Shown here piece after piece: positions 36,668 through 55,306 of a DNA stretch of 64,000 bases (positions within the stretch are counted from its first letter, which is position 1; every line of letters begins with the position of its first letter). The notes beneath the pieces are model-generated. The model was not told where the DNA came from. It searched no databases and was given only the letters and a program-made list of their open reading frames with translations. Source of the DNA: Minisyncoccia bacterium (lineage in GTDB: Bacteria; Patescibacteriota; Minisyncoccia; Phycocordibacterales; UBA9973); contig CBFHKH010000001.1 of the NCBI GenBank assembly GCA_965656375.1, positions 644,291-708,290 on the forward strand, in the 5' to 3' direction. The translations under genes and the position numbers were made by a program.

Positions 36668-37111
36668 ATGAAAATGACTCTCGAAACAATTCCAGATATC
36701 GCACGATCTCTCCTAGAGAAAGCGATCGATATACAAACTGATGAAAGTACTCTTATTACTCTAGAGGGTGATCTTGGTGCTGGTAAAACTACGCTTACGC
36801 AACAGATTGCACGAGAGCTCGGTGTGAAAGCAAATCTTATCTCACCGACGTTTGTGATTATGAAAAAGTATGACCTGCCTGAGCAGGCAGGAGCAAGACA
36901 TAAGAAATTCAAGTACCTAGTTCATATTGATGTGTATCGACTCAGTAAAAGTGAAGAGTTACTCAAACTCGGATGGCTAGAAATTGTAAAAGAAAAAGAT
37001 ACCCTTATTATTCTCGAATGGCCGGAAAATGTGCCAGAATGTATCCCTACAAATGCTCTTAAAGTAAAGCTTACTCACCAAGATGACACTACTCGGGCGA
37101 TAGAATTTTAG
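36668..37111 (+). CDS. tsaE: tRNA threonylcarbamoyladenosine biosynthesis protein TsaE (YjeE)
   Basis: LEGDLGAGKTTLTQQIARELGV...SPTFVIMKKY P-loop signature. Contains an in-frame copy of the GC-rich palindrome (LPEQAG). Confidence 0.75.
   Translation: MKMTLETIPDIARSLLEKAIDIQTDESTLITLEGDLGAGKTTLTQQIARELGVKANLISPTFVIMKKYDLPEQAGARHKKFKYLVHIDVYRLSKSEELLKLGWLEIVKEKDTLIILEWPENVPECIPTNALKVKLTHQDDTTRAIEF
36874..36895. repeat. GC-rich palindromic element copy 1 (GACCTGCCTGAGCAGGCAGGAG), in-frame within tsaE
   Basis: cctgcctgAgcaggcagg differs by one central base from the palindrome at 51035 and 55222. Confidence 0.6.
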
Positions 37112-37187
37112 GATTGATTTTGTAGAAATTTGTGGTAGTATTGTCTGCAAAGTTTACTATCATTCTTCAAATCTAAATTTTAAAATT

Positions 37188-38237
37188 ATGAGCCTTTTAA
37201 AAAGTAAGGTCAGGTTGGCATTTTTTGTCTATCTGATGCCAGCAGTTATTTGTTGGTTGATTTTCAGGCTTGTGACTTTTATTTTAGAGCCAAGCCACAG
37301 TATTGAAAACAGCCTCATTGCATTTGCAGTATATATTGCACTCATCATCGGTTCTTTTATTGTTAGCTATATAATGGCAATATTTGAACTTTCAGCAAGT
37401 TGGGAGGTAAGATTCTTCTTCACATTGATTTCATGTATTTTATTCTTACCCATCATTTTAATTATAGCGCCAATCGCCGCAGCATGTATATGGGTAAGTT
37501 CAAAATTCAAGAATTCCAAATGGGGATGCAATATAACTTCAATACTCGGTCTTATTGCAATGTTTTCTGTATCTCTTTTTGTGAGGCAAAAAGGAAACGT
37601 GAAAGCATTCCGCAACGCAAAGAAAGGTATAGTTGTTTTCAATCACAGAAGTTCAGCTGATTACTTTATCACTGGGTTTATAGGACTTTTCAGAAATTGG
37701 CGCGCAATGATTGGAGCCAATCTATGGAATTGGAGAATCTTCCACTGGTTCTTTAATGCAGTTGGTGTTCCTATTGCTCGTGAAAAAGAAAAGGCAGATG
37801 AACGGGCAAAGGCTGTGAATATTTCAAAAGAGTTTTTGTCTTCGAAAGGTGAAGCAATCCTGATCCTGTATCCGGAAGGTACGAGAAATCGCGGTGAAGG
37901 GGTACTTTCGTTTCATAATGGAGCTTTCAGAATTGCATGCGATCTTTCTGTAGATATATATCCAATTGTACTTTTGAGAGCAGATATGTGGAGGAAACCT
38001 GGAAAGCAGAATACATCTTCTTTTGTAAAAAAGAAAAATATAAGTATGCGGTCAGTATTTCAAAAGGGAATTGGTCTCGTTAAAAGGATCTTTCAAGAAG
38101 GTATCAATCCTACAATTGTTAAGATGCATTATCTTGATCCAATTTCTCCGATAGGCAAAACATTTGAAGAATTGAAAATAGAAGTTCATAAAAAAATGTC
38201 TGATTTCTATTCTCTCTATTCGCAGGGGCATATATAA
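37188..38237 (+). CDS. plsC: membrane-bound lysophospholipid acyltransferase (PlsC/AGPAT family) with N-terminal multi-TM extension
   Basis: HxxxxD motif (FNHRSSADY) and YPEGTRN motif, after ~150 aa of TM helices. Confidence 0.65.
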   Translation: MSLLKSKVRLAFFVYLMPAVICWLIFRLVTFILEPSHSIENSLIAFAVYIALIIGSFIVSYIMAIFELSASWEVRFFFTLISCILFLPIILIIAPIAAACIWVSSKFKNSKWGCNITSILGLIAMFSVSLFVRQKGNVKAFRNAKKGIVVFNHRSSADYFITGFIGLFRNWRAMIGANLWNWRIFHWFFNAVGVPIAREKEKADERAKAVNISKEFLSSKGEAILILYPEGTRNRGEGVLSFHNGAFRIACDLSVDIYPIVLLRADMWRKPGKQNTSSFVKKKNISMRSVFQKGIGLVKRIFQEGINPTIVKMHYLDPISPIGKTFEELKIEVHKKMSDFYSLYSQGHI

Positions 38238-38297
38238 AAATAAAAAGGCTATCCTATGGATGGCCTTTTTCAATACCTAAAATGCTATACTATATCT

Positions 38298-54667: not shown

Positions 54668-54674
54668 TCAAACT

Positions 54675-54893
54675 ATGGATATATTCAAGCTAATCGGAAT
54701 AATAGGGCTTGTGCTCATATGTATGGCGATGATTGTTCGAAAACGAACGCTCCGTGATATTCTCTCGTTCTTTGGCGGAGTAGGGTTGCTCATCTATAGC
54801 ATTTATTTAAAAGATACTATCTTTATAATTCTACAATCTGTATATATAACGGTAGTGTCTGTTGATTATCTTAAGCAGAACAAAAAAAGCTGA
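54675..54893 (+). CDS. small 2-TM membrane protein, hypothetical
   Basis: IGIIGLVLICMAMIV and FFGGVGLLIYSIYL. Confidence 0.35.
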   Translation: MDIFKLIGIIGLVLICMAMIVRKRTLRDILSFFGGVGLLIYSIYLKDTIFIILQSVYITVVSVDYLKQNKKS

Positions 54894-54934
54894 TTCAAAA
54901 TTGAATCAGCTTTTGAAGATGCTATAATATCGAA

Positions 54935-55306
54935 ATGGAATACGTAACATATGATGAATTCAAGAAAATGGACATACGACTCGGCACAATCCGTGAGGTA
55001 GAGCCTGTACCAGAGACAGACAAACTACTTCGTTTCCAGATAGATTTCAATGAGAAAGATGAAGAGGGGAATGCAAAACTGCGACAGATCGTCTCTGGCA
55101 TTCATGAATTTTATCCTGAGTATGAGAAGCTTATAGGCAAACAAGTACTCTATATTGTAAATCTTGAACCGCGTATGATCAAAGGCATCGAGAGCCAAGG
55201 GATGCTCATGGCAGTCGATGGCCTGCCTGCGCAGGCAGGTGCAGATGGCAAGCCAGTATTTTTAATTCCCGAAACCGAAGTTACTCCAGGTGCACGCGTG
55301 CGATAA
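54935..55306 (+). CDS. tRNA-binding domain protein (Trbp111/CsaA/MetG C-terminal-like OB fold)
   Basis: DIRLGTIREVEPVPETDKLLRFQIDF...RQIVSGIHEFY...NLEPRMIKGIESQGMLMA. Carries an in-frame palindrome copy (GLPAQAG). Confidence 0.65.
   Translation: MEYVTYDEFKKMDIRLGTIREVEPVPETDKLLRFQIDFNEKDEEGNAKLRQIVSGIHEFYPEYEKLIGKQVLYIVNLEPRMIKGIESQGMLMAVDGLPAQAGADGKPVFLIPETEVTPGARVR
55220..55240. repeat. GC-rich palindromic element copy 3 (GGCCTGCCTGCGCAGGCAGGT) in-frame in tRNA-binding protein gene
   Basis: Identical 18-nt palindrome at 55222..55239. Confidence 0.65.

Follow-up and report, generated by a model that had tools for sequence, protein, structure and literature searches.

The window, that is the whole 64-kb stretch of DNA analysed here, carries three copies of an 18-bp palindrome, CCTGCCTG(C/A)GCAGGCAGG, the number expected by chance being 0. 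Their location in three unrelated housekeeping genes, as claimed in the original prediction, was confirmed by Pfam assignments for tsaE, ruvX and a gene encoding a tRNA_bind-domain protein, all three of which lie on the + strand. The features referred to below are the following.

7984..8004, + strand: sequence CTACCGATGGCTCAGGCAGGG in ORF 5792-8260, reading LPMAQAG, which may be a fourth copy in decay (low confidence)
36668..37111, + strand: tsaE, ATPase subunit of the t6A complex (PF02367, E 5.5e-32; TIGR00150, E 2.5e-28)
36874..36891, no strand assigned: copy 1, variant CCTGCCTGAGCAGGCAGG, encoding LPEQAG, TsaE residues 70-75
50374..50613, - strand: stand-alone GIY-YIG nuclease gene, 79 aa, beside tRNA-Ser, 420 bp from copy 2 (PF01541, E 8.3e-17)
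50733..51173, + strand: ruvX (yqgF) (PF03652, E 6.9e-25)
51035..51052, no strand assigned: copy 2, exact palindrome, encoding LPAQAG, RuvX residues 102-107
54935..55306, + strand: stand-alone tRNA_bind domain protein, like Trbp111 or the MetRS C-terminal domain (PF01588, E 1.6e-21)
55222..55239, no strand assigned: copy 3, exact palindrome, encoding LPAQAG, residues 97-102 of the tRNA-binding-domain protein

The exact palindrome CCTGCCTGCGCAGGCAGG was found in a scan of the window at 51035-51052 and 55222-55239, and the copy at 36874-36891, CCTGCCTGAGCAGGCAGG, differs from it by one mismatch (C to A in the centre). No 18-mer match beyond these three could be detected in the window with up to 3 mismatches allowed, and 100 dinucleotide shuffles of the window gave 0 palindrome matches. 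The half-site CCTGCCTG occurs 7 times in the window against 0.66 expected; 6 of these 7 belong to the three 18-mer copies and the sole one outside them, CAGGCAGG, is part of the possible decayed copy at 7984..8004. Copies 2 and 3 have a 20-mer in common, GGCCTGCCTGCGCAGGCAGG (51033-51052 and 55220-55239). The GC content of the window is 33-42%. The predicted sites were right, while the predicted end positions were 1-4 bases too long, which is a trivial deviation. The reading phase was identical in 3/3 copies (NNC CTG CCT G(C/A)G CAG GCA GGN), the encoded peptide being LP(A/E)QAG as had been proposed; in their host context the insert peptides read KKYDLPEQAGAR, HARGLPAQAGREG and VDGLPAQAGADG.

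Filled and empty alleles of the host genes

Orthologs without the insert are known for all three genes and the difference is exactly 6 codons, i.e. 18 bases. In the ortholog alignment, which had been named as a check, the 6-codon segment proved to be an insertion in each of the three genes. The insertion point was always after the second base of a codon and no target duplication was present. The junctions in the window are GA[C..GG]A, GG[C..GG]G and GG[C..GG]T, with D, G and G as the preceding residues.

The tsaE orthologs encode 141 aa without and 147 aa with the insert. Among the relatives, one tsaE gene (L236) has the same C to A variant at the same codon and another (L237) the exact palindrome there, and alignments of TsaE to PDB homologs showed a gap at the insert position. 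The empty ruvX alleles of L201 and L204 read CGT GG^N AGG and encode 140 aa, while the filled alleles of the window and of L203 read CGN GG[C CTG CCT GCG CAG GCA GG]N AGR. In case of the tRNA_bind gene, 100 of the 120 orthologs listed had a short loop and 17 a long one, and the short-loop alleles read GAT GGN xxx GAT GGN at the loci with DNA. The exact 18-mer was present at the same codon of this gene in both L201 and L204, the alignment to PDB structures had an 8-residue gap at the insert, and decayed versions of the insert (GLSTQAG, GKPTEEG) could be recognized among the orthologs.

The absence of a target-site duplication could be established at the DNA level for ruvX and tRNA_bind, where the filled allele equals the empty one plus 18 bases, with a 2-base ambiguity of position. 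In tsaE, the empty alleles of which were compared as protein, the flanking base excludes a target duplication. The GATGGC repeat around copy 3 was considered as a target-site duplication and rejected, since it corresponds to the ancestral DGxDG sequence. Similarly, a half-palindrome, CCTGCCTGCCGGCAGGCAG, in the tRNA_bind gene of L176 was excluded as an insertion, since it overlaps the conserved LRQIVSG motif of the host.

Orthologs that carry the insert use the same insert codons, while synonymous sites elsewhere in the gene are saturated, and the exact 18-mer was kept at the same codon in lineages differing at 44-82% of the four-fold degenerate sites. A simple insert-then-decay model does not predict such persistence at saturated divergence. 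The possibility that distant orthologs encode LPAQAG with unrelated codons was tested and failed to refute the insertion, the carriers keeping the same codons. The DNA is identical while the flanking codons vary, in agreement with the earlier argument that the identity does not reflect peptide convergence.

The filled or empty state varies gene by gene among relatives. In the window genome all three sites are filled; in the L201 genome tRNA_bind is filled and both ruvX and tsaE are empty; in L204/L236, which come from the same sample, tRNA_bind and tsaE are filled and ruvX is empty. The 17 long-loop tRNA_bind orthologs of the 120 were scattered over the tree, requiring 13 parsimony steps vs 16 for random labels. 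The relatives' DNA, 675 kb in total, contained 4 copies with up to 2 mismatches, compared with 3 per 64 kb in the window.

The predicted loop-like position of the insert was borne out in both modelled proteins, where it falls in a loop between beta-strands. In the AlphaFold model of TsaE it is in the coil between strands 65-69 and 83-88, in the block of lowest pLDDT, and in that of the tRNA_bind protein it is again in coil, flanked by strands 93-95 and 106-108, at a pLDDT of about 50.

The 18-mer and in-frame GIY-YIG elements in other genomes

A scan of a genome collection detected the 18-mer in at least 119 stretches of other genomes. The original prediction could have failed through a lack of further genomic copies; it withstood this test, more than 100 being found. 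Going by the titles of the records, about 65 of the matches listed were in named Patescibacteria of many classes and about 15 in Bacteroidota, with others in WOR-3 and elsewhere. The sources were independent NCBI, JGI, ENA and Logan assemblies as well as the cultured isolates Litoribacter ruber and Rosettibacter primus. Copies of the 18-mer were also observed in non-coding DNA and in tRNA fragments.

The frames were assigned heuristically, from the longest ORF over each site. Among the matches listed, the low-GC long ORFs read LPAQAG in 35 cases, PACAGR in 11 and CLRRQ in 3 (14/49 in the other two frames), and the short ORFs read the same three frames 11, 9 and 9 times, respectively. The residue before the 18-mer was D at 15 and G at 9 sites (24/35, among the matches listed), and no signal of a target motif beyond G-R^Y could be detected in the flanks of the 18-mer sites. 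Homologs of superoxide dismutase, Mur ligase and RodA/FtsW were each invaded at differing positions.

All-against-all clustering of the ORFs in the 119 loci listed gave only housekeeping families and no protein family recurring beside the 18-mer. The palindrome does adjoin GIY-YIG ORFs in three loci (L027, L040 and L115). An Rfam scan of 18 loci returned only tRNAs and one group II intron, the latter about 1 kb from the palindrome (L024); at the palindrome sites themselves the sole match was a weak tRNA, a disrupted tRNA-Gln copy in L040. Carriage by phages was rejected, as 22 of the 25 viral contigs with the 18-mer were GC-rich (50-67% GC), apparently by chance, and 3 were of low GC.

The 18-mer is the two fused termini of a larger in-frame GIY-YIG nuclease element, which goes beyond the original prediction. 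The element family was defined from L074, L232-L235 and P0241-P0462. The full-length elements are 282, 285 or 291 bp long, always a multiple of three, and start with CCTGCCTGCGCCGCG and end with CGCGGCAGGCAGG, these ends being GC-rich terminal inverted repeats. The product is a GIY-YIG domain of about 94 aa, of UPF0213/Slx1 type, with the junctions (D/G)-LPAPRPG...(T/A)RQAG. In all five full-length elements with DNA the outermost 9-mers, CCTGCCTGC ... GCAGGCAGG, are those of the 18-mer, which is CCTGCCTGC|GCAGGCAGG joined and read LPA|QAG; the phase, NN[C...GG]N between codon positions 2 and 3, was likewise that of the 18-mer in 5/5.

The module family comprises 217 cluster representatives at E<1e-30. 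Dozens of host proteins carry the module, most commonly restriction-modification subunits; it is found inside MGMT, HsdR, HsdS, MsrB, TrmD, TatD and trigger factor, and the host domains split by it are those of MGMT, SelR, DUF899, TatD, trigger factor, HsdS, Mod and HsdR. The residue before LPAP was compatible with NNC in 99% of 101 modules, vs 76% expected from residue frequencies, and was D in 58 and G in 17 of them, i.e. the same D/G (GA^/GG^) preference as that of the 18-mer. The module alignment shows no variation at the catalytic-type residues Y, Y, R, H and E, the only Pfam domain between the two halves of the host domain is GIY-YIG (PF01541), and the solved structures closest to the module are those of UPF0213 proteins, T4 endonuclease II and SLX1. 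Full-length elements sit at the SD^G site of MGMT in two widely differing genomes (L232 and L233), and many other hosts and sites are used as well. A tblastn search of plasmids with the module gave nothing but distantly related stand-alone GIY-YIG genes, the coverage of the query being below 80% in every case, and no NCBIfam model for the module was found.

A single HsdR gene, in L074, contains the 18-mer, a 21-bp variant, a 39-bp variant and a 291-bp GIY-YIG element, all in frame and with the same arms. The 39-bp form encodes LPAPxSEAxRQAG and was found in 2 copies, in two unrelated genomes, with the same length and nearly the same peptide; this resemblance favours propagating miniatures over random deletions. 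The 18-mer itself encodes no GIY-YIG module and has no coding capacity of its own, which leaves only two possibilities, a non-autonomous derivative or a remnant. Since its halves are the outermost ends of the GIY-YIG elements, the window copies are most likely miniature derivatives consisting of the ends only.

No full-length element could be found in the 64-kb window. Its only GIY-YIG gene, the stand-alone one at 50374..50613, falls in the UPF0213/Slx1-like branch together with the in-frame module, to which it is 35% identical; its identity to the GIY-YIG gene located after the palindrome of L027 is 39%. No palindrome arms are present beside it. It may be regarded as a candidate trans-acting enzyme; to our knowledge no enzyme activity has been assigned to this branch in bacteria.

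Proposed explanation and alternatives

We propose, with a probability of roughly 70%, that the three palindromes are the smallest members of a selfish in-frame insertion family, the full-length elements of which encode a GIY-YIG nuclease and the miniatures of which are mobilised in trans. The data show that insertion is exact, that its presence varies between close relatives, and that the inserts agree with the nuclease-bearing elements in their ends, codon phase and preferred target. According to this proposal the GIY-YIG domain would be translated as part of the host protein, and the shorter derivatives (39-bp, 18-bp) would keep only the terminal repeats. Each member would enter a codon after its second base, mostly at GA^ or GG^, and no target sequence would be duplicated. 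Since such an insertion is in phase and duplicates nothing, the host would gain a small, flexible, stop-free surface-loop peptide and stay functional. As for the movement of the miniatures, we infer that a nuclease of the family might recognise the palindromic ends, perhaps folded into a hairpin or cruciform, and mobilise them in trans, and that they might be lost by precise deletion across the hairpin. Several points count against the proposal: the window has no full-length element and its GIY-YIG gene no palindrome arms, a 94-aa GIY-YIG domain has no obvious means to join DNA at a new site, the exact 18-mer persists in strongly diverged lineages, and the copy density is low (3 per 64 kb in the window, 4 per 675 kb in the relatives).

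The same termini, phase and D/G preference would also be expected if the 18-mer were merely the scar of a removed full-length GIY-YIG element, left by nuclease cuts or by deletion between subterminal repeats, so that miniatures never move by themselves. Scars of an element confined to one frame would explain the frame bias without selection on the peptide, and the GIY-YIG ORFs beside the palindrome in L027, L040 and L115 also fit such a history. However, among the orthologs listed, 0/120 tRNA_bind and 0/120 TsaE proteins were long enough for the module of about 94 aa or gave a Pfam match to GIY-YIG; the short form, intact or decayed, was present in 17/120 of the listed tRNA_bind orthologs. The deletion required is backed by only a 2-base microhomology (GC) at the ends, thus hundreds of identical independent scars are unlikely to have arisen unless an enzyme cut there. 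The recurrence of the 39-bp form in unrelated genomes and the use of the other two frames in long ORFs (14/49, among the matches listed) speak against scars as well, and we regard this explanation as unlikely, although it deserves consideration.

Three further explanations were considered. A functional DNA signal, either a competence uptake sequence or the site of a dimeric protein, kept exact by selection or by uptake-driven drive, would account for the exact sequence at orthologous codons in spite of saturated synonymous sites, and a perfect palindrome would fit a dimeric binding protein; besides, Patescibacteria are thought to depend on DNA uptake. The density is, however, one per 20-170 kb, where known uptake sequences occur about once per kb. 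Moreover, the 18-mer arrives as a complete insertion and not by stepwise point changes, is freely lost among close relatives, is identical in Patescibacteria, Bacteroidota, WOR-3 and others, and a signal leaves unexplained that the two halves coincide with the termini of an element coding for a nuclease. We therefore hold a DNA signal to be very improbable, and the uptake signal and the restriction or recombination site offered as alternatives in the original prediction found no support, given the low density, the arrival by insertion and the occurrence in several phyla. Short GC-rich hairpins inserted without target duplication are also reminiscent of REP-like elements moved by a RAYT or IS200-type Y1 transposase, and RAYT-like ORFs with an HUH motif were present in 4/119 loci listed (L029, L032, L071, L074), two of them less than 200 bp from the palindrome. 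This link was rejected, since the RAYT-like gene of L029 has its own, different palindrome on both flanks, GAGCGATATC.GATATCGCTC, while the 18-mer of that locus is inside the neighbouring gene, gatB-like by motif. The 18-mer element is, furthermore, intragenic, no protein family recurs beside it across the loci listed, and a motif search found no HUH ORF in the 64-kb window, so the chance of such a mover is slighter still. Finally, nothing except the shared peptide would favour the assumption that no element exists and that LPAQAG is a conserved peptide motif or the 18-mer an assembly or adapter artefact. The DNA is identical amid varying flanking codons, the segment is missing from most orthologs and has decayed versions, and the 18-mer occurs in independent assemblies, two cultured isolates, non-coding DNA and tRNA fragments; the ortholog comparisons refuted this reading, the probability of which is negligible.

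Relation to known systems and implications

The likeness to Rickettsia palindromic elements (RPEs) noted in the original prediction holds as far as a palindromic insert colonises unrelated ORFs in frame, whereas membership in an RPE family does not (18 bp, Patescibacteria host). RPEs are palindromic repeats of about 100-150 bp, found in frame in many unrelated, often essential genes, with the peptide at fold-compatible positions; they form ten families, all limited to Rickettsia, for which no partner gene is known (PMC10969869). The present element measures 18 bp, extends across phyla and corresponds to the ends of a nuclease-coding element. As with MITEs, a longer coding element has short non-autonomous derivatives that retain its terminal inverted repeats, here in a size series of 282-291, 39 and 18 bp. 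Unlike in MITEs, the 18-mer family lacks a target-site duplication, the partner is a GIY-YIG nuclease and not a DDE or other known transposase, 18 bp is far under the usual MITE size, and all members keep the reading frame.

A 'recently inserted' Slx1-like GIY-YIG domain was described by Dunin-Horkawicz et al. in 2006 in the HsdR protein MCA0838 of Methylococcus capsulatus, a homolog of which, with 80% identity, lacks the domain (PMC1564403). As in L074 and P0261, the R subunit of a type I restriction system contains there a GIY-YIG domain of the Slx1/UPF0213 branch. The case was presented as an isolated curiosity, and terminal repeats, family, other hosts and miniatures are absent from the 2006 description (PMC1564403). 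This insertion is the only one of its kind that we found noted in the literature; the family, the 18-mer and its in-frame insertion were not found described in the searchable literature.

Homing endonuclease genes and inteins resemble the present family in that a selfish nuclease gene resides in conserved host genes and may recur at one site (SD^G of MGMT, L232 and L233), although many other hosts and sites are used too. They differ in that no intron or Hint domain was found here to remove the insert (Pfam: only GIY-YIG), and in that the present elements end in terminal inverted repeats, enter hosts at many different sites and have miniatures devoid of coding sequence. Dispersed short GC-rich palindromes with a nuclease gene proposed as the mover are also known from the REP/REPIN and RAYT system (PMC3116915). 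REPs are, however, extragenic and flank the RAYT gene, whereas the 18-mer copies of the window are intragenic and the RAYT-like gene of L029 has a different palindrome.

The AT-rich mitochondrial genomes of yeast (GC clusters) and of Neurospora (18-bp PstI palindromes) likewise contain short palindromes rich in GC, some of which lie in frame in genes; they are often beside tRNA genes, and the 18-mer likewise has copies in tRNA fragments. They are organellar and have different sequences, and we know of no demonstrated partner nuclease with matching ends. DUS/USS, HIP1 and the small dispersed repeats of cyanobacteria are, like the 18-mer, short conserved motifs of coding regions in preferred frames. 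DUS/USS and HIP1 are 8-12 bp long and the others 21-27 bp; all are dense and lineage-specific, and DUS/USS and HIP1 arise mostly by substitution.

More tentatively, and with somewhat less than an even chance in our estimation, the family may constitute an undescribed class of bacterial mobile element, in which a minimal Slx1/UPF0213-type GIY-YIG nuclease takes the place of a transposase and the ends are GC-rich terminal inverted repeats. Such an element would enter at a fixed codon phase, duplicate no target and be translated as a loop of its host protein, intein-like without splicing, and its 39- and 18-bp derivatives would have spread across phyla in essential genes of streamlined genomes. 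Under this wider reading the enzyme would keep re-inserting or refreshing the 18-mer, and the sequence would for this reason remain exact at orthologous codons.

If the proposed explanation is correct, the isolated HsdR observation of 2006 would be tied to a large family (217 cluster representatives, E<1e-30). We know of no function for the small bacterial GIY-YIG proteins of UPF0213/YhbQ type, and a defined 18-bp palindromic DNA partner makes their function directly testable; if the nuclease recognises the long palindrome, it could also serve as a reagent. In annotation, such inserts may be mistaken for domain fusions or lineage-specific loops. The proposed explanation would, if correct, also account for a class of short indels in Patescibacteria proteins, and the gain and loss of the inserts would provide population-level markers. 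It would also mean that selfish DNA can inhabit the essential genes of very small genomes with almost no intergenic space, the strategy being to stay in frame, to encode a harmless loop and to shrink to 18 bases.

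Three in-frame copies in the window and their empty orthologs

The window is AT-rich (GC 33-42%), and the GC-rich 18-bp perfect palindrome CCTGCCTGCGCAGGCAGG lies there in three coding sequences, which were identified with both Pfam and NCBIfam:

36668-37111, tsaE; one-mismatch copy (centre C to A) at 36874-36891
50733-51173, ruvX; perfect copy at 51035-51052
54935-55306, stand-alone tRNA_bind-domain gene; perfect copy at 55222-55239

The window search and the ORF and domain identification bore out the original prediction of a palindrome in frame in three genes and in one phase; only its end coordinates were a few bases too long. 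All three copies are read as NNC CTG CCT G(C/A)G CAG GCA GGN, giving LP(A/E)QAG. No further match with up to three mismatches was found in the window, and none in shuffled sequence. At 7984-8004, within a large secreted-protein-like ORF (5792-8260), CTACCGATGGCTCAGGCAGGG encodes LPMAQAG, possibly representing a fourth copy that has decayed and gained 3 bases.

The segments had been read as in-frame insertions at loop-like positions, and close orthologs of tsaE, ruvX and the tRNA_bind gene which lack the six codons confirmed the insertion. In all three genes the insert comprises exactly 18 bases placed after codon base 2, and target duplication is absent. The TsaE and tRNA_bind segments are gaps in alignments to solved structures, and the placement of the RuvX segment is ambiguous; for tRNA_bind, close orthologs decide the matter in favour of an insertion. 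Among the best 120 tRNA_bind hits the loop is short (AVD-GxDG) in 100 and long in 17, and 13 of the 17 have exactly six additional residues (GLPAQAG or decayed forms, e.g. GLSTQAG and GKPTEEG). The empty DNA reads GAT GGN xxx GAT GGN and the filled one GAT GG[C CTG CCT GCG CAG GCA GG]N. The GATGGC repeat around this copy was considered as a target duplication and rejected, being ancestral DGxDG sequence. Empty RuvX has 140 aa in the relatives L201 and L204 (ARG-REG; CGT GG^N AGG), and filled RuvX 146-147 aa in the window and in L203 (ARG-LPAQAG-RxG), both with the exact 18-mer. Most relatives have a TsaE of 141 aa (KKYE-VVDKK), and a subset has the 147-aa form (KRYN-LPAQAG-VVDKK); the C-to-A variant is common to the window and L236, and L237 carries the exact palindrome. 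As for the predicted loops, the tRNA_bind and TsaE inserts each form a coil linking two beta-strands in the AlphaFold models, where confidence reaches its local minimum. Some orthologs (L124:368 region, P0023, P0095) have an unrelated 7-residue insertion in the tRNA_bind loop (GPSKDETS or GPSNDETG), their closest relatives having an empty loop; the loop thus seems to be a general indel hot spot.

Four long perfect palindromes of the window look like bidirectional terminators and have no sequence relation to the 18-mer:

36490-36533, 44 bp, centre CATATG, between ORF 34496-36484 and tsaE
43249-43304, 56 bp, centre TCTAGA
44073-44106, 34 bp, centre ATATAT
47434-47471, 38 bp, centre CATATG

Between ruvX and the tRNA_bind gene lie two adjacent paralogous Cys-rich ORFs of about 580 aa each (51025-52920 and 52928-54667), with many CxxC pairs and the C-terminus YCEKCYQQEVI; at that position L201 has one copy, L203 and L204 none.

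Turnover and distribution of the 18-mer

Presence of the insert varies by gene among the relatives. The window is filled at all three sites, L201 at tRNA_bind only, L204/L236 (one sample) at tRNA_bind and tsaE, and L203 at ruvX, with a decayed tRNA_bind copy. In a neighbour-joining tree of the 120 tRNA_bind orthologs the 17 long-loop alleles require 13 changes (random labels: about 16), and for most of them the nearest neighbour is an empty allele. An independent exact 18-mer occurs elsewhere in the same loop of L176, a distant ortholog at 55% identity. Filled alleles diverge at 44-82% of their four-fold degenerate sites but at only 0-3 of 18 insert positions, so the GC-rich insert codons far outlast the expectation of neutral decay in an AT-rich genome; repeated insertion at the same nucleotide, enzyme-driven refresh and selection on the DNA sequence are candidate explanations. 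Within an ECF sigma-factor gene of a relative (L201:2185), CCTGCATGCGCAGGCATG differs from the 18-mer at two positions, through decay of a former copy or by coincidence.

The further genomic copies implied by the original prediction were found in at least 119 stretches of other genomes (scan of one genome per species), the calculated chance frequency in a 40% GC genome being about 1e-12 per position. Among the stretches listed, about 65 are Patescibacteria by record title, from many classes (WWE3, Microgenomates, Paceibacteria, Saccharibacteria, Kaiser-, Woese-, Gottesman- and Nomurabacteria groups and others), and about 15 belong to Bacteroidota, one of them a cultured isolate; among the remainder are WOR-3, a cultured Rosettibacter isolate and a few genomes of high GC content, for which chance is a plausible source. 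Relatives of the window have 4 copies (up to two mismatches) in 675 kb.

Among the listed matches in low-GC genomes, ORFs of at least 150 aa read the 18-mer as LPAQAG in 35 cases, PACAGR in 11 and CLRRQ in 3; in listed ORFs below 100 aa the counts are 11, 9 and 9. The flanks of the listed matches have only G-R^...^Y in common, with Asp or Gly before the insert at 24 of 35 sites. Homologs of superoxide dismutase, Mur ligase and RodA/FtsW are each struck at differing positions, so the 18-mer has no strict target.

Most 18-mers of Bacteroidota MAGs are non-coding and lie in intergenic DNA, amid other GC-rich hairpins and often beside a CCGCTA motif (L012, L034, L075, L082, L088 and L107 of the Sphingobacteriales MAG JAAFJW01; L110, L117; L005, L046), and one such MAG has at least 7 copies. 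The 18-mer is sometimes part of a longer palindrome of 36-42 bp (L082, and likewise L068 from a Rhodanobacter MAG).

A GIY-YIG element family with the same ends

No protein family recurs beside the 18-mer in the ORFs of the listed loci. In a WOR-3 MAG (L074), a single EcoR124-type HsdR gene (Pfam) carries four in-frame inserts:

insert 1, exact 18-mer
insert 2, 21-bp variant (LSAGQAG)
insert 3, 39-bp variant, coding strand CCTGCCTGCGCCGCaaagtgaaGCGGCGCGGCAGGCAGG (LPAPQSEAARQAG)
insert 4, 291 bp with the same arms, a GIY-YIG catalytic domain interrupting HSDR_N

A search with the 291-bp segment recovered this module inside unrelated proteins, at 50-75% identity in the better matches. Hosts are MGMT, where DNA_binding_1 is split at profile position 59 of 81 (...PCHRVVRSD-LPAPRPG...GRTRQAG-GTPGGY...), MsrB, TrmD, DUF899, HsdR, HsdS/HsdM-like proteins and DNA methylases, and, by profile search, many HsdS subunits, trigger factor, TatD, a type III Mod methylase, a PD-(D/E)XK nuclease and a DUF1156 protein. 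At E<1e-30 the exhaustive profile search yielded 217 cluster representatives; at E<1e-10, a threshold which also admits stand-alone relatives, there were 5077. In most top hits the module is internal to proteins of 200-1100 aa, some with two or three modules. The module has no NCBIfam model and was not found in the plasmid collection.

A set of 101 modules has a modal length of 94 aa, with LPAPRPG-like N-junctions and (T/A/L)RQAG C-junctions. In 99% of them the residue ahead of the module fits an NNC codon, against 76% expected (D 58, G 17), a D/G preference common to the modules and the 18-mer sites. Residues Y, Y, R, H and E of the module do not vary. Among solved structures the bacterial UPF0213 proteins (1ywl, 1zg2) are closest to it, followed by T4 endonuclease II and SLX1. 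Four further full-length copies (L232-L235; 282 or 285 bp, phase NN[C...GG]N) begin with CCTGCCTGCGCCGCG and end with CGCGGCAGGCAGG; in L234 a 39-bp miniature follows the element in direct tandem. Since these ends and the LPAPRPG/RQAG junctions match, the 18-mer (LPA|QAG, CCTGCCTGC|GCAGGCAGG) represents the two outermost 9-mers of the family joined together, and the 39-bp form is an intermediate.

The window holds no full-length element. Its stand-alone GIY-YIG gene (50374-50613, minus strand) shares 35% identity with the module and 39% with the GIY-YIG following the palindrome in L027, so its involvement is only possible. The gene lies directly upstream of tRNA-Ser(tga) (50277-50364). It is preceded by GGAGCTGT, whose sequence is similar to GGAGGTGT at the 5' end of tRNA-Ser, and by the GC hairpins TCAGCC-CAA-GGCTGA and TCCGCC-TAG-GGCGGA. 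The layout at 50277-50680 resembles nuclease cassettes beside tRNA-Gln in other genomes. At five loci (L027:1735, L039:3540, L040:6792, L045:372, L115:728; three named Parcubacteria-group lineages and two unclassified MAGs) the exact 18-mer splits a tRNA-Gln 5' fragment or pseudo-copy at nucleotides 10/11, adjoining an intact tRNA-Gln. The cassette nuclease is GIY-YIG in L027 (with LPAQAG in frame), L115 and L040, and HNH in L039. A Saccharibacteria contig (L099:4643 and 6119) has two 18-mers in tRNA 5' fragments, between nucleotides 9 and 10.

Proposed mobilisation and relation to known elements

The 18-mer insertions are precise, in frame and polymorphic among close relatives, and have ends, phase and target bias in common with the nuclease-coding elements. 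A family nuclease would recognise the GC-rich inverted ends, which can fold as a 7-8-bp stem, and would mobilise coding and ends-only members alike. Persistence would be limited to copies landing in tolerant loops and in a benign frame, and copies after GG may be readily lost by slippage across the hairpin, from the flanking GG to the terminal GG.

The main rival is that each 18-mer is the footprint of a departed full-length element. However, the listed orthologs have no full-length occupant at the window's sites, the deletion would be supported by just 2 bases of microhomology, and the 39-bp form recurs in unrelated genomes. An uptake signal, a peptide motif, an artefact and a REP/RAYT element are all weak explanations; a RAYT link was tested and rejected, the RAYT-like gene of L029 having a palindrome of its own. 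This Saccharibacteria locus (L029:3640-4340) holds a RAYT/IS200-like Y1 transposase gene with GAGCGATATC(C/G)GATATCGCTC on both sides, which suggests that this Patescibacteria genome has a REP/RAYT pair.

The ortholog comparisons, showing precise insertions, uphold the main interpretation of the original prediction, an in-frame palindromic element similar to those of Rickettsia. The latter, about 150 bp, in frame and restricted to Rickettsia (PMC10969869), are the closest in lifestyle. The architecture resembles that of MITEs, but their target duplication and transposase are lacking and the 18-mer is far smaller. Homing endonuclease genes and inteins likewise place a nuclease inside conserved genes, although in the GIY-YIG family both intron and Hint domain are absent. 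In HsdR of Methylococcus capsulatus, Dunin-Horkawicz et al. (2006) pointed out a single Slx1-like GIY-YIG domain as 'very recently inserted', and also a few fusions; they did not describe repeats, a family or miniatures (PMC1564403). A full-text literature search with the sequence, the junction peptides and related terms gave no description beyond this HsdR case.

These results tie the 18-mer, as the minimal form, to a large family of GIY-YIG elements inserted in frame. We place it among known kinds, namely in-frame palindromic repeats, MITE-like derivatives and selfish nuclease genes, and there is a substantial chance that the family is a new class of mobile element.
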